Positions 9,272 through 64,000 of a DNA stretch of 64,000 nt are shown one piece after another. Below the pieces are notes generated by a model. It searched no databases and was not told where the DNA came from. It was given only the letters and a program-made list of their open reading frames with translations. Within the stretch, counting starts at the first letter, position 1; the number at the start of each line of letters is the position of its first letter. Where the stretch lies: NCBI GenBank assembly GCA_905178155.1, contig CAJINV010000001.1, positions 13,363,713-13,427,712 of the forward strand. The letters are read 5' to 3'. This DNA is from Amoebophrya sp. A120. Its lineage: Eukaryota; Protista; Dinoflagellata. The position numbers and the translations under genes were made by a program.

Positions 9272-12200
9272 CTACTTTTTCGGCTTCTTCGACTTTGGCG
9301 GTGCCACCGCGATTGCCTCGTCAATAGGCGCAGACCCGGGCGCGACCTTGGTGACGCGTGCTCTTCCTGCAGCATTGAATCCGGGATTGTTGTTTCGCTG
9401 CTTCGCTGCTACATCAGCAGACAATGCCATGCCGTTCGCTCCAAACGGATTCATGGTGTCCTGAGATGGTGGCGGGAATATGAACCCCGCAGTGCGCGTC
9501 GACGTCGCCGCGGGCGGGTACTGTGAAACGGACGCTCCGCCAGTAGCCGTTGTGCAGCTAGATATGGATTGGCTCGCATCGTCCTGGGCGGGAAAGAAGC
9601 TGCAGGAATTCGTAAATGCAACTTCTGCTCTGGTGTTCGTGGCAAGTCTTTTTCCACTCATCAAACACCCCTGCTCGGGCTCGTGCAGCTCCAAACGGCC
9701 GCGCTTCAAGTTGTTTCCCGCGGACGATGCTGCGTTGATATTGTAATTCGGATGGCAATTGCTCACCGTTGTCGTGCGCGAAAAATCGTCGTCCTGAAAA
9801 GCCAGCCGCTGCTGCAACATGGCGGTCGTGCCGGGCTGACTGTCAACATTCTTCGCGGCCGCAGCGGTTCGTGCGGAATGGATGAAGCTAGAGGATGCGC
9901 TCGAAGTAGGAGGAGCATTCGCAGCTCTACTTGGCCACCGCGTCGCGGTACTCGGATTCGGATTCCGGGTGCAGGCGGGGGACTTGAGGTTGTTGATGTT
10001 CGCACTCGCGTTCGCAAAAGAACCACCTGTGTTACTTTGCTGGTCTCCAAAGAGCCGTGGGTACTGCTTTTGCTTGGATGTCAACGCGTTGCCGGGATTA
10101 AGCAGCATGTTCTCTTCTGGATTGATCATTTGAGAAGTTGAAGTTGTGCTCGCAACTACAGTATTCGACGGAAAAGAGCAACTCGCTGGATTCGGTGCGA
10201 CGGTTTTGTGCAGGAGCTTCTTGGCCTGCTGTGTGCTCGAACCTCTCGGAGTGGTCGTCGCGCAAGAGCTCGCAGATGCAGCACCGTTCCGGGCAGCCTC
10301 CAAAATCTTGACTGTCGCGTGCACTTGCTTCGCTGCAACTGATTTTTCTAGCGGGTTCCTGATGCCGCTCGGAAGTGGTACGGGCCGGTCCGCGACCAGA
10401 TCCAGCATCCATTCCCTGTTGTGATTTGATTTGACAAATTTTTTGGTATCAGCACATTCTCGTCCACAAGTGCAAAAAGCTGAAAGCAGCAGTCCATCAA
10501 CATTATACCGAATCTTCAATAATCTTGCGGTGTCATGATCCAATTCACGGAGCGCCAGGTCGTAGGCTTCAAAGGCTTTCGTGTTCACGTCAACTGGGTA
10601 CTCTTCCTCAACCTCGGACTGCGAGACCTGGGACGGACACTGGCTATCTTCCTCGCCAAACCTGGAAAAAAAGAAATGCGGGATGATGTCACCAACAACG
10701 ACTGTTGAAACAAGTGAAACAAAACGAATTTTGGTTGACGGGTATGTGATTTGAAACTGCTCCTGGTGGAGATGATGCGACCTTTAAAGAATTCTCCTGC
10801 TCTTACCATTCGTGCTGCAGCAGCTGCTCCGCCGTCCATCGCTTCTTCGGATCGTATGCCAGGGAGTGCAGCACGATTTCGGAGATAGCCTCGACGTGAT
10901 TTCCCGCGCGCGCTCGCAAGGCCCGCCACCGGTTTTCGCACCATTTTTGATTCTTCTTACTCTTCTCGATTACTTCGGGTTCGGCCTTGCAACCCTTCCC
11001 GGCGAGCCCGTAAAGCCGTGCACGATGGTCTAGCGTACCCGCAATGGACATGGGAATCAAACTGTGCTCGTGCGAGAGCCCCACGAGTTCAAACCTAAAA
11101 ATAATTGGCAGTTCCGACGACGTGCTTTGAAACTGCAGATTTTCTGCGGCGTGCATATGATATTTGTTCGACTAAAGCACTTCATTAAGTACACTCTTGT
11201 CCTCTCCTTAATGTAGTTTTAATCAGCTACAACATGATCTTGAAGCTTCCATGATTTTCATCAGCAACATCAAGCATATTCAGTACAGCACGCATCCCAA
11301 GCCGAAGACGTCGACTTTCGCGTCGTAATCCTCGACGGCCGCAAGCATTTCCGGCGCCAGGTAGCACCGGGTACCGACCCCGCGCTTCGTGGTCATCTTG
11401 TTTACCATGCTCCGGGCCATGCCCATGTCGGCTAATACTGCTTCCCGCTTGTTCCGGTCGAAAAAAATATTTTCCCGCTTCACATCGCGATGCAGCACCT
11501 CGTGTTGGTGCATCCAATCCAAGGCGCGGAGAATTCCCGCACATATCCGGCGCACCATCGAGATTTCGTTCACTGCAAACCTGCGATCGAAGGGACAGCG
11601 AGAGATAATTGTCATGTTTGCCACTACATTGCAAATTGGGTGGACGCAGAACCTTGTATGAAGGAGAAATTCTGCGCACTAGAAGCCTCATAGATTCTAT
11701 GCGAAGAAAAAGAGAGAAAGGCCGATGCAAAATACTCGTCGAGACTGCCAGGCCGGTAGCAGGGCATTACGAGGTAGACGTAGTCGAACTTGCTCGCATC
11801 CGTCCCGAGTCTATGAAATGGAAAAACAGCTGCTTTGCGCAATGACAAGTCCGTATTACTCGTCAGTTTTGCCGTGGAATCATAATATTCCGAACTCATA
11901 TGCTGTGCAGACAGCAGTAGCGGGATATCTATGTATCTTTGTGAGCTGGAAGCGCATTAAACGAGCAGCACATGCATTTTTTTCTTTCGCTGGAACTGTA
12001 ACTGAGACGAACTTGTCAGGCACAACAAGAGTGCTTTCTTCGATCCGTACTCTGTGTAGAGATGCAGAAGCGGGGAGATGTTCGGGTGTCGCAAGTACTT
12101 GAGGAAGTGAACCTTTGTTTGTTCCAGTTCCATGTATGATGACTATCTGTAAGATGACAATCATTTTTGATCACGTCAATTACTCAGTAAAATTACGGTG

Positions 12201-14069: not shown

Positions 14070-16685
14070 TTATGGTTTTGGCTTTTTTGGGGGCCTTTGG
14101 AGTATCGTCTCGTCAACCTTCTTCACACTGCGTTCGGCGTCTCTTTTGAAAACAAAGACATCCTCTCCTATGCACGGTCCTGAGCCAGCTTGGTTTGAGA
14201 TACACTCCGCAGTCCGTCGGTCGCGCGTGTCTTCGAGCGCGGCGCGCAGGACAGGAATCGCGCCGATGCGTCCTTCCCGAACGGCAAAAAACCGCGCGAA
14301 ACGAAACATTCCGGAAATAGCGGCGGAGAACATACCGAAGATTCTACCCGACATCAGATACCCTGCAGCTTCTGCGAGCGCCGCACGCGTGAAGCTGGTG
14401 ACGCCTTGCTGTTGACTGTCATCGAGACCGCCGCCCTCCGCTACGAAATGGAGAAGCGCTCCAATCTCTCCGTATCCTGGTTTCACAGCGACCTGCTGCC
14501 AAAAAGTAGCCTGCAAAAAATCCCAGGCGGGAATGCCCAAAGGCTTCCCGTCCGACAGGCTGCACACCGCCCTGGGCTGCATTTCCTGTTTCCTTGTTAT
14601 CGTCCCGTTTTTCGCGGTCGTTTCGGTCGTCACCCGCAGAGCGGGGCTGACGAAGCCCGGACCGGAGCTGAGTTCCATCCAAACGGACCGCCGGTAGTCC
14701 CAGCTCTGAAAGAGCTCGTCCAGAATGTAGCAGGTGTCCAGTGCGTGATCCGGGACGATCTGGTAGCGCCCATTTTTCCCCGTCTGCCCGGCGTTGTACT
14801 CTTTCTTCTCGAAGAGCATGTAGCCGAACCAGGAGTGGAACAGCTGCTCCAGATCGACGTCCGTCGGCCCCCGCGAGACTTTTCGGCCAGGCTCCCCCAG
14901 TAACGGACACACTTGTGCCGCGTGCGAAGTGACCACAACAGTGTGGAGTTTCGCATTGTGGTTTTTCTCAATGTACCGCTGCAGGTACCGCTCCGCACCG
15001 TAGGTCCTCTGGAAGGTTTCGCCAGGGTTACGGAAAAAGGATGTGGAGGAATCTTCGTGGCGTGGGCCCAGCGGGTAATTTTGGAACACCGCGGTCTTGA
15101 TCAGAATGTCCACACGGAAATCGTCCATGCTTTTCACCACGTCGCTAATCTGAAGATTTTTACTTTGGCTTCGATTTTTCTCAACGGGCTATGAAAACCG
15201 GTCACCAGGATCAGTTGTACTGCTACAAAGACAATGAATGAAATGAATTCATTAGCTTTAAACGAGGTAGCTCGGAGCATCAGGTTTTCTGCTACTAAGC
15301 ATGTACTCGCTGGTAATCTTCCTCTGCTCCAAAATCGTAGATAAAGCACTTCAGGCGTGTGAAATCGGGGCGAAGAATTGTGTGGATAATGGAGTCACAC
15401 GCCGTCATCGAAGGCACGCCAAGGTAGAGCATTTTTGCACGCCCCCACTCAGATAACCATTTGGCCGTGTGGTAGCCCACACCGTGCGTTGCGTCAGTGA
15501 CCAAGATATTGCGGCCCTGTAGTTGTTCGATAAATTCTTCTCGAACGATCATGCCGATTCTAAAAATCTTCTTGACATTTTCTGATTTGACAGAGAGGGA
15601 TTCCATAGTGTAACGAAAAACAACATACAACAGTACAACTTACGCCGAATTTCTGGTGCGTTTCATCGTAGGTTTCCAGAAACGCTTCTTCCAACGGCCT
15701 GTCCAGCACGGTTTGGGCAGCAAAGGTGAGCGCGATGGGTACCACTACAGCCGTCCAGTAGAGGAATCCTATGACGAACGAGCCCCGACACGCGATGTTT
15801 TTGACCGTCAGCTTTTTCTCATTGGGCACGAGGTCCTGTGGCCGCAAAAGCAACGCCTTCACGTTGTGCGTTTTGGACATGTAAATTTCCGCTTCGAGTT
15901 CGCCCTTCCACCAACAATAGCTGGAGTAGTAATTCCACATGAAGGACACAACCACGACCGCGACGATAACACCGAGAGTACCCTGTGCCGTTTTGTCGAC
16001 CGCCAGCGCATCGTCCGGGCGACCAACTTGCACGTCCCGATTCCCGAAGTAGTGCTGGACAATGGCCACGTAGTAGTCAGGTCCGCGGAGAAACACAAAA
16101 TACCCGACGGAGGCGAACAGCAACGCGAGGTGCCGGGAGAGCCAAATCAGGTCGAAAAAGCACCGGAAATGACCGTCGCCAACGAGCACGAGGAAAAACG
16201 TGAAAAACAGCGTGAACAGGAAGCCAAGCATGAAATCGCCGAACCCCTACCAAATGCAAAAATGTCTGGGTCTGGAAAAATTCACGTTTGTCATGCTTGT
16301 CTGGCGTGACTCTTAAATCTGTCATGCACGTTCCCAAGAGCTCCGTTTTTCTGTGATGCAGAGGCACAGTTTGTCATGCAGAATAGGCAACACCTAGGAG
16401 CTCAGAAACTTGTCGTGCTGAGCCAGCATTCGTAGCCTCATCATGAGACGCTACCCAGCATCACAAGTTTCCAGACCCAGACATTTTTACTTTTGATAAC
16501 CCCACACGCCAGACGAAATCCGGAGTAGCGTCCAGGACTGCCGCCGCCGCCGGCTGCCTTTTCGCCTGCGCAAGTAGGGAGTCCACCTGCTCTGGTAACG
16601 CGGAGAGCCGCTCGAGCAGCTGCTCCGACAAACCATTCAGGCTCAGCATCGGCGGCGCGCTGTTGGAACCGGTATCCAGTCCCAT
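14070..16685 (-). CDS. Multi-TM protein fused to a short-chain dehydrogenase-like Rossmann domain; interrupted by introner 16248-16498
   Basis: The first exon (MGLDTG...DFVWRVG) joins ORF 15560-16231 (several hydrophobic helices) after removal of the element. It is followed by ILVTDATHGVGYHTAKWL (TGxxxGxG-like) and VDILIKTA via a GT-AG intron into ORF 14070-15140. Confidence 0.65.
16248..16498. mobile_element. MITE-like introner element, copy 1 (251 bp, 31-bp TIR, 5-bp TSD ACCCC)
   Basis: Left TIR taccaaatgcaaaaatgtctgggtctggaaa versus right tttccagacccagacatttttacttttgata (28/31 complementary). ACCCC occurs at 16243-16247 and 16499-16503. A near-identical second copy lies at 33785-34036. 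Confidence 0.92.
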
Positions 16686-22429: not shown

Positions 22430-24492
22430 TCAGAATTGCTTTTCGGTAACTCCGGCGCCCATGATTGAAGTTGAGCTCTTGCCCGCGGTGACGGCGCCCA
22501 GCTGCGCATCGATCAGCTCTGAACCGGACCACTTCTGGTGGGTCAGCGTGCTAACCCCCTCCTTGCGCTCGGAGCGCTGGATCTGCGTCACGTATGCCAG
22601 CATCTCGTCCTCCTTGTAGGCGCGGGCGAATCGGGTAATTCCCAGCGCGTCTGAGTGAAACCCGGCCAGGGTGATGAACTGCCAGCAGAAACCCATCTTG
22701 GCCAGGGCGGAAATGTACGTACGCATCTCCTCGTCTGACAACCCAGAGGCGTCCCAGTTGAAGCTCGGACTTTGGTTGTACGCCTGTAGAAATGAAGTTA
22801 AACATGAGGAAAATCCTCATTGAATTTCCATTTGTTGTGATTCTGCTCTCGGTATGCGCAGCAATCCCGAACAAGAATATCAACGACTTGCAATGAAAAT
22901 TGTTCCTATCTATACCAGCATGAGATGCGGGAGGGTGGCAGACACGTCGGCCGCGAAATCCTTTGCCTGCTGCACGCCAGGCTTTGCGGTTTCCATCCAC
23001 ACGATGTCTGCAACTTTTCCGAAGGCCTTCGCGCGCTCGGAGCACATCTTGGTACCGCCCTGGATCTGGTAGTAACCTGGAAAAATTTTGTCCGCAGAAA
23101 TCATTATAGAGCAATGGAAAATCTTCGTTCTCATCCCCTCAATGCGACTAGAAACATAAAATCCCGTCCGTATCATGAGTTCTTGCAAGCCTCCCCGTCA
23201 CAGTACCTTCCACCACCCTCGGCGCCTCCCAATCGAAGAACGGATCCCCCGCCCCGAGTTTCTTTGCCAGCGCTTTCAAGTCCGGGAGCGAGAGCTGGTA
23301 GCACTTGCTGTCCCACTCCTTCACCTTGTTTGCATCCCCAGCGAGTTTTTCGCGGATCAGCGTCGGGTAGGTCTTCGCCTGCGCGCGCTTCATCCAGTCC
23401 TTGTCCGTACCCTTGGCCGTGGCCTCCCGCAAGGACTCCACATTCGACACCGTCGCGCCGAGGATGAAGGGGTGGTCGCGCCCGTCCACGTTGGAGTCCA
23501 GTAATGTCGCGGCGTCCGCGTCCGTGCGGGCGACGATTAGCAGTGGGCACCGCATCACGTCGGCCTGCAGCCGGGCCGCGATTACCCGCTGGCAGTGCTC
23601 CGACACGGGGACAAGTACTTTGCCGCCCATGTGCCCGCACTTTTTCGTGCCCGGCTTCTGGTCCTCGAGGTGGATCCCTGCCGCGCCATTCTCGATGAAC
23701 ATCTTGGTTAGCTTCATGACCGCCGTCAGGCCCCCGTGCCCGGTGTCCGCGTCCGCGATGATGGGCAGCATGTAGTCCACCGCCGGGTTCTTCGCGCGCC
23801 ACTCCGGCGTCTGGCGCATGCGGAACTCGAACTGCTTCCGGTCGTGAAACACCTGTGCCTTGTACAGCTGATCCACTTTGTTCGGCACCGTGTCCATGGG
23901 GTAGTCCGCGAGATCCGGGCCTGGTTCGTTGCTCGTGCTCGCGGTGGAGGAACTCTGCCAGCCGCTTACGTAGACCGAACTGAGCCCGGCCTCCGCCATC
24001 TGCACCACCTGCACCGGGTCCAGCGCCCCAAACGTGTGCGACATCTTGCCCTTCTCCCGGTGGTCGCGCAGCAGCGTGTACAGCTTCGCGGCACTGGTGG
24101 CAGAAGGGTAGTTGGGGAGTTCCTGTCGGGTACCCTGAAACCGGGTCACTTCCGCGGGACCAAACCTGGTTATTAGAAGAGCTGGGATTTCGTATCTTTA
24201 CTTTTAATGGCGACAACTGGGGTGATGCGCTTGTAGTTGCGAACAAAACTACAGAAAAGTTCATGACTAGTATGCATCAATTCCGCGGTCCAATTTCCAT
24301 CACTAACTGTAACTACCCACCAAGTAATGCAAATGTAAGAAAGTAGTACGGTCTTTCCACGTATTGGAAGCGTTTGGATGACATGAAGGCCTCATTCTTC
24401 GCTTTTCGCTGTTCGAAAAAGGCCATCTCCGAGTCGCCCGACTTCCCCGCATTGACATGCGAGGCGATTGTGGCCGCACGGTTTTCTGCCAT
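22430..24492 (-). CDS. ICL: Isocitrate lyase (4 exons)
   Basis: Motifs [77 protein letters not shown] introns at 24166-24349, 23077-23206 and 22784-22915 restore one frame. Confidence 0.97.
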
Positions 24493-33220: not shown

Positions 33221-35897
33221 TCACCTCAAAATGCACGGGGGAATGCGCGGCGCAGGTCGCTGCTTTCGTACCGTAGTGCCAAACGTCGTTCTGCCGTGGA
33301 ATTCCTTGCACCCCGTCCCTGGCAACAACTGCTGCAGCTGCTTCGCCCTGCTCTGCGCCTTCCAGAAGAGTCCGACGTTCGACATCGCGCTCTCGTGACT
33401 TTCCCGCACGACACTTGGTACACTTCTAACCTCGTCCGCAAAGGGAACCCCGTGCTCTTCGCGCTCATCCAACAGTAATGCCGGTCTCGCTGTCGAGGGG
33501 GCGGTGGTAGAGGTGTAGGGCGAGGAGGTGCGCCCAGGGAAGGGTGAGGCCGTTGTACGGTCGAAGCTGCGCTCGGAATGGTCTGTCGGTCTTTTACCCT
33601 TGTTTTCTTGTTCAACAATCGCCGCAGCTGATGCTGTTGCAGCTGCGGTCGATGGCAATAGTTCCACTCTTTGCTGGCCTGGCTGCACCGTCGCCTCAAG
33701 ACGTCGACCGTTCGCTGCCGACTCTGTTACTGTTTCGGCGGTTAAAAGGGTCTCATTGGCGCCATTATGTTCGACGCAATTGGATATCAAATGTAAAAAT
33801 GTCTGGCTCTGGAAGAATTCATGTTTGTCATGCTTGTCTGGCATGACTCTTAAATCTGTCACGCACGCTACCCAAGAGCTCCGCTTTTCTGTGATGCAGA
33901 AGCGCAGTTTGTCATGCAGAATAGGCAACACCTAGGAGCTCAGACACTTGTCATGCTGAGCCAGCATCTGTAGCCTCATCATGAGACGCCACCCAGCATC
34001 ACAAGTTTCCAGACCCAGACATTTTTACATTTGGTATTGGACGAGTTCTTACTATGTGCTACTTCCGGTAGTTCCTTTTCGGGCGTGGATACTGCACCAA
34101 TGAGCAAGGAACCGTCAAAGCCACCTGCCGGACTGACGACCAAAGAGGACTCGTCGACCTGCATTTGCACGTCGCCTTGCGGCTCTTGCATGTAGTCGTA
34201 TGCAGGTCCTCCTCCTGGATTTCCGCCTTCTTGCGACGGGAGATGGGCAGCTCCCAGATTTCGATGCCCCTGAGCTTGTGCGGCGTAAGAGAGGCATTCG
34301 AAAAGCTGCGACATTGGTGATGACGACACCGACTGCGTCGTAGCGACTGCGTGCATTGCAGGAAAGCGCATCTGATCGTCAGGAAAGGACTGAAGGGCGT
34401 CGTGTTGGTGGTCACCTTGCGCCGCCGCTTCCGCGGAGAACAAGTTCCGCCCCTTCATCTCTGTGTGCAGAAACTCACTCGTTTCGCGTGCAGGAGGTGC
34501 CTGTATTTCAACGCCCGTCGGCATATTGCTTACAGAACCCATTCCTCCTCCGTATTTCTGCGCTATGAGCTCCAGAGAAAGCGTCGAACGCGTTTTCTTC
34601 CACGCGGAAAAACAGCGGTGCAGCAGCTTGAGGCTCTCCCAGGCCCGCTCTTTTGCAGCAGCGGCCCGTGCTAACATGTCCTCGCGCTCCCTCGTCAAAA
34701 TCAGTCGCGCAGCACCACGACGAAGGGAGTCTTGGTGCTGCCTGTAAGCGTCCCTTTGGCGCGCTTTTTTGCTGACGCGGTTTACTGCCCAGGACCTGTA
34801 TTATTCCACAAAAAAGCGATCGCGCTGAAATCAATTGCTCAGCCTGTCAAGAGACGGATTTCAACGTTGTTCCATATCACGCATAGTTAACTGCAGTACT
34901 ACGGAACCAATATATTCATCCACCATTACCTCCAATTCGTGAGGAGTGGCGGAACGACCTTGCCAAGTCTGAATTCTTTCGCCACGATTCCTGCACACGT
35001 CAAGGTTTTCCGCTCGCTCGCACGCTCTAGCCACCGTCGGAGCTTGAAGCGCAGCCGGCATTGAAGGACGTGCTGGGATAAATCAGTTCGTTTGGAAGTG
35101 CGAAAAGAACTTGCTGATTCTATTGCTAATCTGATACATAGTGACTTGCAGAATTCAGTCGAAAGAATGAAAAGTTTGAATTTCAAATTCACCACGAGAA
35201 CTCTCGTGAAAAAATCAAATCCTTCTACCTGCCGTGCAAGATCCCCCATCAACCTCTTACGCTTGCCGGCAATCGCGAGCTCGATCCAGGCTCGGATGCA
35301 GGTCTTTTCGATTCTGCATTTCGCAAACAGATTCGCCCTGCCGCGAAGGCGGCGCTCCTCCTGGTTCCGTAGTGCGTGACGCCGTAAGCTTCCGCAGGCA
35401 TTCTTCATGCGTCGCGTCTGGATGACGCTGGTTGCTCCATACTGTCGCTGCCGGAGGGCGTGTAGACAGTGAAAAGCGCGCCATCCCTGTCGCAGTATCT
35501 TTCTCCGCTCGGCAAGCTCGTGCCACCTGAGTATCGATAGCGCAATAAGTAATGAGGAAGATCAACATGTGAGCACAATGCAGCCTTCGACATAATATTT
35601 CCTCGCAAGTGCGAGCACTTTTTCTCATCACATGCGCGTCAGTGTAGCAGGAGCAGCTTACCGCCTCCACAAGCCAGCCTTCTGTAGCGCTTGGACCTTC
35701 GTAGCTTTTTGCGCGTAGCCTTCTTTCTGGTGGCTGCAAAAGTCCTTCCAATGCGCAAAAAAACGGCCTGCGACTTCCTGCTCAAGGTTCGCGCGCAAGG
35801 ATCGAATTACCCTACACGCAATCCGCTTCACCCAAAATCGCAACGCACGCACGTTGAGCTCATCCATGTTCGTTCGGTCTTTATCTGGCAAGAACCG
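33221..35897 (-). CDS. Multi-exon protein with Sfi1-like Trp-terminated repeats; interrupted by introner 33785-34036
   Basis: GT-AG-joined exons give recurrent units ending in F/LxxW (AGRFFAHWK, GLWRRWHE, TCIRAWIE, FKLRRWLE, LLTNWRSW, LLHRCFSAWKK). The frame continues across the element (KNSSN|CVEHNGANE). Confidence 0.6.
33785..34036. mobile_element. MITE-like introner element, copy 2 (252 bp, 31-bp TIR, 5-bp TSD TTGGA)
   Basis: Left tatcaaatgtaaaaatgtctggctctggaag versus right tttccagacccagacatttttacatttggta (28/31). TTGGA occurs at 33780-33784 and 34037-34041. Colinear with copy 1. Confidence 0.92.
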
Positions 35898-49600: not shown

Positions 49601-52079
49601 TTTTTGCTTTCTTCAAAGTTATGGTTAGCCACACTGAAACACGAATTCTATACTAATATGTATATTCTGTTTTAATAGCACGCACACAACATGTCCCGAG
49701 CGGTCACGCGGTGAGCCAGCGCATCACGATCGTCTTTTAGTTGCTTTAGGTAGCATCGTAGTTGTTCCTAACCGCCTCTTGCTGTTGCTGGTGGCGAAAA
49801 TGCTTGCGGCCGGCAATGTCTCGCGAAAAATGATCGTCCGTAAGCGCAATCTAAAAAAATGGCTTCTCGAAACTATGCCGCACAACCACCCTCGGCCTGG
49901 GGTATACCACCTTGCAAGATCTAGATCTCCCTTGGATTTTATGTTGCCCCTCTGAAAGAACAGACATCAACTCCATTCATGTGTGTCGTACGTAAATCTT
50001 TAAATCACGACAGTGGACTCGTGCACATTTTTTCACATACGATTCATTCACGTACCTCCAAAAGTACCGCAGAGTGCCTTTCCTTTATTCACGTAAGTTA
50101 GTACTGCAGAGAAACCCAAGGAGTCTCCTCCTACTTGACCACTTTTTTCTGCCGTGTCACATGATGAAACCATATAAATGTTCATTTTCACGTCTGCAAG
50201 CCGCGGCCCGACAAACATGTTTGCTATTAAGTGATTTTTGCTTTCGGTCATCGAAAAATTAAAGTACTAATCTGAGAAGTAAGCGCAGCATTCAACATGG
50301 GACATTCCTTCTCCGGCCGGAAAAAAGGCTTTGCTCCGACGAAGTTCCAGAAATCTTCAAATACGTCCAGTATCTATGGATCTACCCCCGAGAACCGGCG
50401 CTGCCTTCCCCTTCGCTCCGCCTCTACTTTCCAGAGGCTGTTAAATCGTAGGAGCCCTTCCATTTTGGTAATTCGGACTCGTCACTGCTACTGGAAGATG
50501 AAGATTCTGAGACGATTGACGATTGCGAAGCTGCTCGAGCTGATGGGGGCGGCGACGCGGGCGAAGTTGCGGAGCTCGACGAAGGTGTCGCGAAGCCGAA
50601 GCTGGCAGCTGCGGACATCGGCGACCCTGTCGTGGAGCTGGCACCTGGGTCTTCGGGTTTATCGATGAGTTTATAGCGACCGAACCCGATCGACGGTCTT
50701 GCATCGTTCCGATTTTCGTTGACGTACAGCATTAGTGCCTCTTTAGCCGCGGCGTGGGAGACTTCGAACTTTGGAAACGGCCGCTATCGAAAGAAAAAAC
50801 TGTTTCACTGTAGCGATCTTGCAAAGTCGCAAACTTTTTTCGGTGTCAGCCTCGATCTTTTTTTCAAAGCAGCTAAGAGCTGAAGTTTTGATATTCTCAC
50901 CCAATGGATGCTATTCATGCTGCTAGCTAACGGCTGCTTCAGTTAAGATCTTAAGTTAGCTAGTTAGGGTGGCAGGATGCATGTTGAAAACGGAAACCGG
51001 AAGCAGCGAAGCTTGAATGGTCACGCAGCACGCTCTAGGGCGTCATCACGCAGGTTCTCCTTCGCGCCTCTTAGCCGTGCCTGTTGTATCAAGATCTCCT
51101 CCCCCCCCTTCGCTTAACTATGTATCTGGAGCAACCGTAGCTAGCTTTTGAGATTAGATGGCACGACATCTTCAAACAAAAGACATGCCAGATTTCCGGG
51201 TCGCGATCGAGTTGAAAAAAATTCAGCTCGATGCCAACTGAAATTCAGCGACTTTCCAAGATCGTTACGGTGAAAAAGTTTCTTCTTACGATAGCCGTCC
51301 ACCGTCGTCTAGTACACTTTGTGGGTTGGCTCCGGTCATTCGTAGAAAATTCGCGAGCGGCATGAGCCGATGATCACCTGCCACGCATGCCTAATTAAAC
51401 AGACCTACCCCTACGAGGAAACCCAAGCACCATCTACCTCTGCCCTTCAGCCTGGCGTTGGATTTGGGTATGGTGTGACTCCCTTCACCAAGTATGGAGG
51501 CCGCGCCCGGAGGGCGATATTGGTAGCCAAGTAAGCTGCGAGCCGCCGCCGGCTCCACCACTTCCCCGGGGCCCTCCGTAGAGGGCCGCGGGCAACTACG
51601 GTCGCCCGCACGCTCCTGCGATGCGCATTGAACACGAAACCCTGGCCCGGATATTTCGTAGCGGGGCATCGTTAGTTACCTTTCTAGCCCCCCCCACGCG
51701 GTAGGGGCGGTTATTTCAAGGCCACCGCGCCATCGCGCAAAACATTACGCACGACGCGGGGGCAGGGGGCGAAGAGCCCGGGCCTGCGCAACTTTTGCAA
51801 ATTTTCCAAAAACTCGCGGTGCCTGCCGAGCCAGCACAGCCGCCCACTTCGGGCGCGGGTGAGTGGCAACAACCCACGGCACACTCATTGGGCCTTTGTT
51901 ACATGCCCCCACTCGCTTCTAACGCGTCTCTTTTTTTGTTGGCAATCGCGAGGGTATGACGCGTGCGCGCGCCCCGCCTCCGGGGCGCCCTTGCCGGGCA
52001 GCCAGTTTCTTGGCCTGGCGATGGGTTTGAGCTTTCGCGCGCTTCCGGGCTTTTTCCCAGTTCCCAACTGGCCCAGGCG

Positions 52080-57655: not shown

Positions 57656-57902
57656 GCCCTGTTTAGTAATATTTCTAGAGAGTGACCCGGCCGGTGGGGT
57701 TGGTCATAGCATGCGGGAAAAAGTGAAAATTTGCGACTTTTGTTCTAAGACGACCTGACTCAACTTGAAAAGTTGACTTTTTTTTTGAAAAGCAAAAGAG
57801 CAGAAAAAAAAGAAACAGCCCGAGAAAATCGCTGGAAGTTGTGCAGGACCTACCGCGCGCGCGCGCGCGTTTTACCGGATTCGGCTTGGCTTTTTTTGCA
57901 AG

Positions 57903-58145
57903 TTTTCCCGGATTTGCCAAATTCATCAGCTTCACCAGCTTCGCCAACTTTCTCGGATTTGCGAAATTTGGCAAATTCATCAGCTTCACCAGCTTCACCA
58001 GCTTCGCCAGCTTCGTCAACTTTCTCGGATTTGCGAAATTTGGCAAATTCATCAGCTTCACCAGCTTCGCCAGTTTTCTCGGATTTCCGAAATTTAGCAA
58101 ATTCATCAGCTTCACCAGCTTCACCAGCTTCGCCGACTTCGGAAA
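57903..58145. repeat. Minisatellite of 27 phased 9-mers in higher-order units of 45/72/54/72 bp, flanked by (CG)7-8TTTTAC(C/A)GGATTC direct repeats
   Basis: 9-mers such as attcatcag, cttcaccag, cttcgccag, ctttctcgg and atttgcgaa are in perfect register. Flanking repeats at 57854-57882 and 58173-58199. Confidence 0.9.
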
Positions 58146-58874
58146 TGACCGGGGCCCGTGTGTTTTGTTTGACGCGCGCGCGCGCGTTTTACAGGATTCT
58201 ACCTCTGCCGCCTGTAGGTGGCATGTTTCTGCTTCGTGTTGTGTCTGCTAGACAAGAAACACAAGACGCGAACGAAGAAACAGCGGGCAAGGAAACAGCG
58301 GGCAAGCAGACAGGGCCGAGACAAACCAACGACAGACCGAGGGCGATCCTACCTCTGGAGCGAACGGCAGACCGAGGCTGGTCAGTCTTCTGTAGCGAGC
58401 GGCAGACCGAGGCGGACCCTCTGAAGCGAGCGACAGACTGTGACGGGTTCCATGTATGCTTATATGTATGCTGGTCAGGCAAGGGGGCGCCACCGGCCGA
58501 CCCAGCGACTTGGTACAGAACACAAAACAAAAAGCGAAGGCGCTGAGGCAGTCGGGCCCGCGTCCCACGCGCTTGGGGGCGCCGGTGCGCAACGAGGCGC
58601 CCCAGCCTCTTACTCTTGCGCGTGCTCTACAAAGGGTCTACCTGCTTAGCGCGAGTCGCTCATCGCCGCGGGAGTCAGGTCTCATTATCCTCGGTTGCCA
58701 AAGTTCGGAGGCCTTCAGGCATAGCACACAGGACCACCTGCATGGCGTAGATACGTCCACGCCACAAGTGTCCACCTGTGTAAGTATTCAGAAAAGAAGC
58801 GCAGGCGCGGAAGCAGGAGAGCCCGCTTGCCACTGTTGCACATAGCTCACTCACAGGCCTGCATAGCAGAGAGC

Positions 58875-63045: not shown

Positions 63046-63201
63046 TGTTTTCGGTGGTGTGGTGTGGTTGGAGTCGTGTCTTTCTGTCTCTTTGACTTTA
63101 AGTAGCGAAAAGCTGAAGGAGGTGAGCTACACTCCTAAGATTGTCGCTCGTGCTATTGTGTGCGCGCGCGTGTGTTTGGTGATTATGCGGGCAGGCCGGT
63201 C

Positions 63202-63484
63202 GGTTTGCGAGCACTCCGGTCGCTCTCTGTCGAATGTCTGAGCAGTGCAGCTTGATTGGCCTCTCGGTCTCTCTTGCTTTTCCGTGCTTCTACTTTGCCA
63301 GCGCAACAATGCAAGCGAACGAGCGACGAGCCTGCCCGATGCGGCTTGCGGCCAAGCTCCTGGGCATGTTGTCTCTCGCTCTGTTTCCGACGACGCAAAA
63401 CATGCGCGCCCTGACCTCTCTCGGGTTTGCGAGCACTCCAGTCGCCCTCTGTCGAATGTCTGAGCAGTGGAGCTTGATTGGCCT
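63202..63484. repeat. 61-bp direct repeat, two copies 222 bp apart
   Basis: ggtttgcgagcactcc(g/a)gtcgc(t/c)ctctgtcgaatgtctgagcagtg(c/g)agcttgattggcct at 63202-63262 and 63424-63484. Confidence 0.85.
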
Positions 63485-63490
63485 ATCGTT

Positions 63491-64000
63491 AAAAGGGAGA
63501 ATGGAGGTCACCCAGTTGCCGTCTTTTTCCAATGTTAACAGGGGGAGTGGACGTGCTCCGGCTGCCATCTTTTTCCAATGTTGAAAGGGGGAGCGGAGGC
63601 GAGCCGGCTCGCATCTTTTTCCAATGTTAGGAGGAGGAATGGAGGTGACCCGGTTGCCATCTTCTTCCTATGTTAAAAGGGGGAATGGAGGTGATCCGGA
63701 CATGGTCCACCCGCCATGTTTTTCCAATGTTAAAAGGAGGAATGGAGGCGACCGGGCTGCCATCTTCTTCCTATGCTAGAAGGGGGAATGGAGGTGATCC
63801 GGACACGGTCCGCCCGCCATCTTTTTCCTATGTTGAAAGGGGGAGCGGAGGCGAGCCGGCTCGCATCTTTTTCCAATGTTAAGAGGAGGAATGGAGGTGA
63901 CCCGGTTGCCATCTTCTTCCTATGGTAAAAGGGGGAATGGAGGTGATCCGGACATGGTCCGCCCGCCATCTTTTTCCAATGTTAAAAGGAGGAATGGAGG
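63491..64000. repeat. Satellite of 46- and 57-bp monomers with a 252-bp higher-order repeat (runs off the window)
   Basis: Monomers aaaagg(g/a)ggaatggagg...gccatctttttccaatgtt. The pattern 46+46+57+46+57 gives 252, and gagcggaggcgagccggctcgc recurs at 63591 and 63843. Confidence 0.9.

Follow-up and report, generated by a model that had tools for sequence, protein, structure and literature searches.

A 252-nt introner element interrupting a protein-coding gene of Amoebophrya sp. A120 is absent, together with one copy of its target-site duplication (TSD), from transcript-like contigs, which confirms what a preliminary description had read from the DNA letters. The element lies in a 64-kb stretch of DNA (hereafter the window, meaning the whole stretch analysed), two of whose proteins are 100% identical to Amoebophrya sp. 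A120 proteins. We give somewhat better than even credence to removal by RNA splicing, carried out by a modified U2-type spliceosome whose cuts are set by distance from the end motifs of the element and not by GT and AG. The stricter version, in which a single machine places its cuts 1 nt ahead of the end motif and 4 nt beyond it at any bases, with no need of TSD or hairpin, is tentative, and we place it slightly below an even chance. The finding belongs to a published class and is in that sense already known, since the public A120 gene model reads SSNCVE across the junction and the class is described in the available text of Farhat et al. (2021; PMC7789003).

The element has the make-up of a MITE, being short and non-coding, with terminal inverted repeats (TIR), a TSD of fixed length and many copies. 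On the mRNA (minus) strand the order is TCCAA (34041-34037), TACC...GATA (34036-33785, 252 nt) and TCCAA (33784-33780). The inverted ends extend over 30-31 nt with 94% complementarity, one carrying TAT and the other the TAC variant, and the predicted fold reaches -113 kcal/mol (z -6.4), which none of 200 shuffled sequences equalled. The features by which A120 introners are recognised were all found, namely removal at non-GT-AG ends, an inverted repeat of at least 8-20 nt, the motif TAT + 7 nt + AAA, a 5-nt direct repeat and repetition in the genome, the window itself holding a second copy. Copies in a related assembly are up to 95.6% identical to the element, and a search of Rfam returned only a chance-level match (E 0.59). 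Within the element, the contig depth of run X1 is orders of magnitude higher (about 1.2 million summed at the element end, which is not a copy number, against 44 outside), as a large repeat family would produce. Run X21, which is 2026 RNA under the same species label, gave 93 reads in 1 of 30 bins, on one element end (33783-33816); about 90 of them combine that end with other flanks, so the element end in that RNA comes from one other locus.

Table 1. Features of the introner, its host gene and related elements in the 64-kb window.
Feature	Position	Strand	Basis or remark
Introner element, 252 nt, non-coding, MITE-like, TA...TA ends	33785..34036	-	repeat and copy comparison
5' terminal inverted repeat, TACCAAATGTAAAAA...	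34007..34036	-	self-complementarity, fold
3' terminal inverted repeat, inward TAT + 7 nt + AAAAA (published A120 motif)	33785..33814	-	
TSD TCCAA, 5' copy	34037..34041	-	
TSD TCCAA, 3' copy	33780..33784	-	
Predicted true intron, 1 nt + element + 4 nt, AT..CA	33781..34037	-	placement inferred from eroded copy
Host gene, 654 aa, public Amoebophrya sp. A120 model P0121	33221..35867	-	
Canonical GT-AG intron of host gene, 134 nt	34796..34929	-	contig skip
Canonical GT-AG intron of host gene, 156 nt	35073..35228	-	contig skip
Canonical GT-AG intron of host gene, 135 nt	35527..35661	-	contig skip
Intron of protein kinase gene, 243 nt, GT..CT; eroded introner 11812-12049 with 1 nt before and 4 nt after	11808..12050	-	
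First family copy, 251 nt, TSD GGGGT on mRNA strand	16248..16498	-	92.5% identity to 33785-34036
Element of another TA...TA family, 509 nt, TSD match 4/5	50785..51293	-	not covered by RNA

Excision of 257 nt fuses the frames 33979-34800 and 33221-33931 and yields the peptide SSNCVE. An Amoebophrya sp. A120 protein matches the host exon at 100%, and its public 654-aa model already spans the junction (HSKNSSNCVEHNGANE / SSNCVE). Contigs of runs X3 and X5 skip from 33778 to 34036, a distance of 257 nt, the shorter flank being 255 letters long and the joint ambiguous by 6 letters, and the same contigs also skip all three other introns of the host gene, each of them GT-AG. Runs X3-X6 were taken as RNA by guess; X3 and X5 are two samples of one study, which may be the source data of the public gene model. 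Run X1 has no joints here, neither at the element nor at the GT-AG introns, and we regard it as DNA-like because its depth is even (43-51) across introns and intergenic DNA. No Pfam family was found at cut-off in the 654-aa host protein. Its residues 1-280 are basic and helical-looking with spaced tryptophans, which we take to be reminiscent of Sfi1-type repeats, and the insertion falls in the low-complexity half of the protein. The neighbouring cysteine synthase has its best non-self match in Amoebophrya sp. A25.

Seven equivalent positions of the 257-nt cut, between 33779 and 34041, give the identical spliced sequence, and their ends are AC..AT, TA..AA, AT..CA, AA..CC, CA..TC, CC..AT and TC..TA. 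The junction anatomy, the peptide and these seven pairs, as first described, are borne out by the sequence and by the 257-nt skip. GT/GC...AG is found at 0 of the seven, so the ends are not those of a canonical U2-type intron. The donor consensus of U12-type introns is RTATCCT; the ends do not suit that class either, because only AT..CA is available, with no AT-AC, and minor snRNAs are reported absent. The claim that no GT, GC or AG occurs at any frame-restoring register holds for the seven equivalent positions. It fails for the register 33786-34042, which starts with GT (GT..AT) and gives the same peptide through a silent change, and it was drawn too widely, in that 42 of the 43 GT-AG pairs lying within 60 nt of the element ends keep the frame open. 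The use of such cryptic sites, named beforehand as one outcome that would contradict the proposal, was seen in none of the X3 and X5 contigs. Internal cryptic GT-AG pairs, and symmetric removal as N/TA...TA/N (slashes mark the cuts; element+2, one extra codon), give an open frame on paper and were rejected, the contigs being different.

Between 6000 and 41500 of the window, 18 of the 21 joints readable among the matches listed are GT-AG, and 3 have no canonical position. All 18 canonical introns begin with GTA (GTAC 7, GTAT 5, GTAA 5, GTAG 1) with little conservation further in, and no common branch-point motif was seen among the introns read. One GT-AG intron, 22784-22915 on the minus strand, has an introner-like 5' end at +1 (score 5.3) and is possibly an old introner turned canonical. 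The first family copy is removed as 256 nt in 4/4 runs, again with seven positions and GT-AG at 0/7. In the element at 50785-51293 the TSD mismatch is silent. Introner-like elements number four in 64 kb, below the density expected from published genome-wide figures; the long genes examined in the window are all on the minus strand, and repeat arrays occupy 57850-58440 and 63200-64000, with periods of 9 nt, 35 nt and 46 nt and a 65-nt pair.

The position of the cuts could be addressed at the eroded copy in the protein kinase gene. Its skip, 11808-12050, has one possible cut position, which was seen in 4/4 runs and agrees with the public model, reading YTDGTDASK, and no direct repeat accompanies it. 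Exactly 4 nt inward from the 3' end of the intron, the profile of introner ends reaches 21.2, the third-highest score of the window. At the 5' end the best score falls at +1 after the intron start; it is weak, only 1.7 (top 0.2% of window positions), at what is simultaneously a plain GTA donor. Since the end scores lie at +1 and -4, and since the eroded element of 238 nt plus 5 makes the skip length of 243 nt, this copy is removed as 1 + element + 4. Only 1 of 5 flanking bases matches, there is no stable hairpin (fold z -0.3), and an AG that lies 3 nt earlier and would keep the frame is not used. A possible 3-nt assembly error at 11808-11810 would make 11808-12050 an ordinary GT-AG intron.

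Elements with mismatched TSDs were also sought. Among 33 candidates, of which 32 were scanned, 2 lie in recognisable domains (DGAT2 and enoyl-CoA hydratase). The element in the DGAT2 exon of the related assembly (L073:645-840) has one TSD mismatch, and a residue conserved there can be kept only if the 5' copy supplies 3 or more TSD bases, in agreement with 1+4, which is one of the three positions allowed. This residue is S in 25, A in 16 and P in 1 of 47 parsed homologs, the closest of which reads KSIANY; 23 of 70 matches were dropped, their motif being unparsed. The enoyl-CoA hydratase element interrupts a conserved exon and does not decide between cut positions. These observations suggest that the cuts lie at a fixed distance from the element ends, with N/TAY mimicking the local GTA donor, the 1+4 rule having as its basis one RNA-supported junction and one conservation argument.

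We then considered the family as a whole. A scan for the end motif returned at least 150 stretches, and all 80 among the matches listed come from one related assembly. In a set of 143 complete elements from the matches listed (141 from the related assembly, 2 from the window), 119 are flanked by a perfect 5-nt TSD and not one by a TSD of 6 nt, which ruled out the latter length in spite of a matching sixth base in both window copies. Alignments of at least 200 nt were obtained for 42 of 139 blastn matches. At the element ends, TA occupies positions 1 and 2 in 283 and 285 of 286 cases, one end being fixed by the search pattern, and both ends carry one inward motif, TAY-N7-AAA. Arm-to-arm pairing at variable positions was left out of the evidence as biased by that pattern. 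No transposase-sized frame, that is none above 151 aa, was found among the matches listed in 10 elements of 290-1255 nt and one further element of 1031 nt. Window sequence outside the elements has no matching locus among those searched, hence no empty site for comparison.

TSD base composition in the related assembly is near random and close to that of the flanks. With either strand counted (n=214), the TSDs permit GT-AG in 20 elements, GT/GC-AG in 27, and 43 with AT-AC added. Any excess of GT-AG-permissive TSDs is at most mild, with 14/117 (p 0.018) in a narrower set and 20 of 214-216 against 13.9 expected (p 0.064) in the larger one. At the 1+4 position GT-AG was observed 8 times against 5.5 expected, and in TSD composition neither a G preceding the element nor an AG at the predicted acceptor is clearly favoured. 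In a test of removal lengths, which is a weak one, element+5 left the frame open in 41 of 100 cases and other lengths in 23-30. Pfam searches with 94 flank pieces of 47 elements gave matches on both sides for 3, and one continuous profile only for RPB1.

RPB1 is an essential gene. Its locus in the related assembly (L058:256-5777), which we assumed to be the working copy, holds five introners in 6 kb, four of which interrupt exons. One of the five lies within the conserved DTAVK-TSETGYIQRRL stretch and one inside a GT-AG intron. On the sense strand none of the five can be cut at GT/GC-AG, and retention stops the frame within 26 codons. Removal of element+5 makes yeast-numbered residue 830 meet 833 with no gap. 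Because TSDs are near random, because only 20 of 214 are GT-AG-capable, and because four copies sit in RPB1 exons, introner removal is very likely real in cells at the level of the class. That removal is independent of the TSD sequence, as had been proposed, finds support in the exact removal at two different TSDs in the window, in the near-random TSDs of the family and in the eroded copy that lacks a duplication.

In the mechanism that we propose, a DDE-type transposase acting in trans would have inserted the element through a 5-bp staggered cut with little target preference. The element is transcribed in either orientation and presents the same motif at both ends. The donor would be cut 1 nt before the element, giving N/TAY, which matches positions +2 and +3 of the GTA donor found in all 18 canonical introns, and the acceptor 4 nt past it, both distances being read from the one eroded copy and presumed for the others. 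Since 1+4 is the TSD length, the pre-insertion sequence would be restored whatever the TSD. The hairpin that young copies form may assist removal but would be dispensable, and catalysis would be carried out by the U2/U6 core with altered end recognition. We know of no precedent in other systems for spliceosomal catalysis with random end dinucleotides. A search outside subscription journals found no published mechanism for the chemistry of introner removal in Amoebophrya, and the border rule may already have been published by others.

The preliminary description spoke of two splicing modes acting on one pre-mRNA. As a description this stands, but it does not establish two separate machines. In the eroded copy the donor is an ordinary GTA and the other end is not AG, a combination compatible with a single machine that defines ends in two ways, and from this one RNA-supported case one relaxed spliceosome seems likelier than two machines. 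The second machine might be a non-spliceosomal endonuclease-ligase that reads the terminal motif or stem and frees the element as a circle, in euglenid fashion. Such an enzyme would accommodate the random end dinucleotides of introners and the strong stem of young copies, and euglenid introns of similar anatomy do exit as circles under a code of their own, according to the available text of PMC11282704 and PMC12501133. We nevertheless consider it unlikely, if the most serious competitor: the eroded copy lacks a stable stem and begins with an ordinary GTA donor, and the Euglena signature 5'-N3CDG ... CH'GN5-6 is missing from all seven positions at the junction.

Guidance by the TSD itself, through realignment of the two copies, would agree with the perfect TSDs kept in 202 of 266 elements of a broader set and with the perfect TSDs and stems of both young window copies. 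It is quite improbable in view of the 243-nt intron, which leaves as element+5 from a single position between flanks matching at 1/5, and of the mismatched TSDs in conserved exons of DGAT2 and enoyl-CoA hydratase. A slip of reverse transcriptase over a repeat-flanked hairpin, which would leave the element in the RNA and the gene truncated, is less probable still. The 33785-34036 element does have the shape, a hairpin between direct repeats, of the published 'falsitrons', which reach up to 70% of cDNA reads in the available text of PMC8240250; the contigs analysed are of cDNA type only, and the main text of PMC7789003 does not contain the terms direct RNA, template switching, artifact or lariat. 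Against a slip, single contigs cross the junction in both samples, and for the class the artefact is disfavoured because conserved frames are intact around the four elements in RPB1 exons and because both repeat and hairpin are missing from the eroded copy. Slipping could, on the other hand, inflate the apparent efficiency of removal. Excision at the DNA level in the expressing life stage, after the manner of the ciliate internal eliminated sequences that TA...TA ends resemble, is barely credible. Rare variants are lost from contigs and X1 may come from another life stage, but X1 has no joined form and its long contigs enter the element at both ends, no TA remains after removal, and in a single-nucleus life cycle the excision would be heritable.

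Splicing by a modified spliceosome can be set beside what has been published on this organism. In the available text of PMC7789003, more than 60% of introns are non-canonical and genes with both intron types are described, which, together with the transcript-like contigs, upholds the earlier statement that the introner is removed without canonical ends from a gene whose other introns are GT-AG. The same text describes introners with inverted repeats and 3-5-nt direct repeats, a hairpin, a mean length of about 240 nt and, in A120, the motif TAT + 7 nt + AAA. It reports U2, U4 and U6 (U5 in A120) and 83 of 89 spliceosomal proteins, with U1 not found and minor snRNAs absent; it gives the border position as unknown or variable and leaves the mechanism open. 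The present analysis differs in that one eroded copy fixes 1+4 for its own junction and shows neither TSD nor hairpin to be needed there. Gozashti et al. (2025; PMC12130899), in the available text, list 58 A120 families, many of them 'TIR DNA' and mostly with non-canonical annotated ends, including families of 250-260-bp TIR elements such as fam12 with 331 copies. The end sequence of our element, sought as text, was not found in 12 of the 14 supplementary files of that paper, and its family 38 has an integrase-like ORF, which our element does not.

Comparison with other systems is limited to the available text of the papers cited. Nonconventional introns of euglenids (PMC11282704, PMC12501133) share MITE-like character, inverted ends, TSD-like repeats, occurrence beside GT-AG introns, and cut sites spaced from an internal motif. 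They differ in that the motif is CDG/CH'G, in that circles have been demonstrated, and in that hybrids are rare there, one being found here. Non-canonical introns of Fritillaria (PMC11282704, PMC13326754) are likewise transposon-derived and attributed to an altered spliceosome, but prefer the ends AG-AC and AG-AT, whereas Amoebophrya ends are near random. The TA..TA termini are shared with IS3EU/GingerRoot elements (PMC10045372). Assignment to that group was rejected because it usually makes 6-bp TSDs, in contrast to the 5 bp found here in 119/143 and the 6 bp found never.

Tens of thousands of such elements have been reported before, and what the analysis adds is the proposed border rule. If 1+4 holds, existing genome and RNA data would settle the borders through copies with decayed TSDs, and gene models could be corrected. 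If the stricter rule of one machine measuring 1 nt and 4 nt from the end motifs is true, the borders left open in 2021 would be fixed, and Amoebophrya would have a spliceosome without rules for end dinucleotides, by which every insertion with a 5-bp TSD would be erased perfectly from mRNA. The 1+4 rule, should it hold, would also offer a model of how a transposon family was turned harmless in essential genes such as RPB1, the geometry of splicing being that of the 5-bp stagger.
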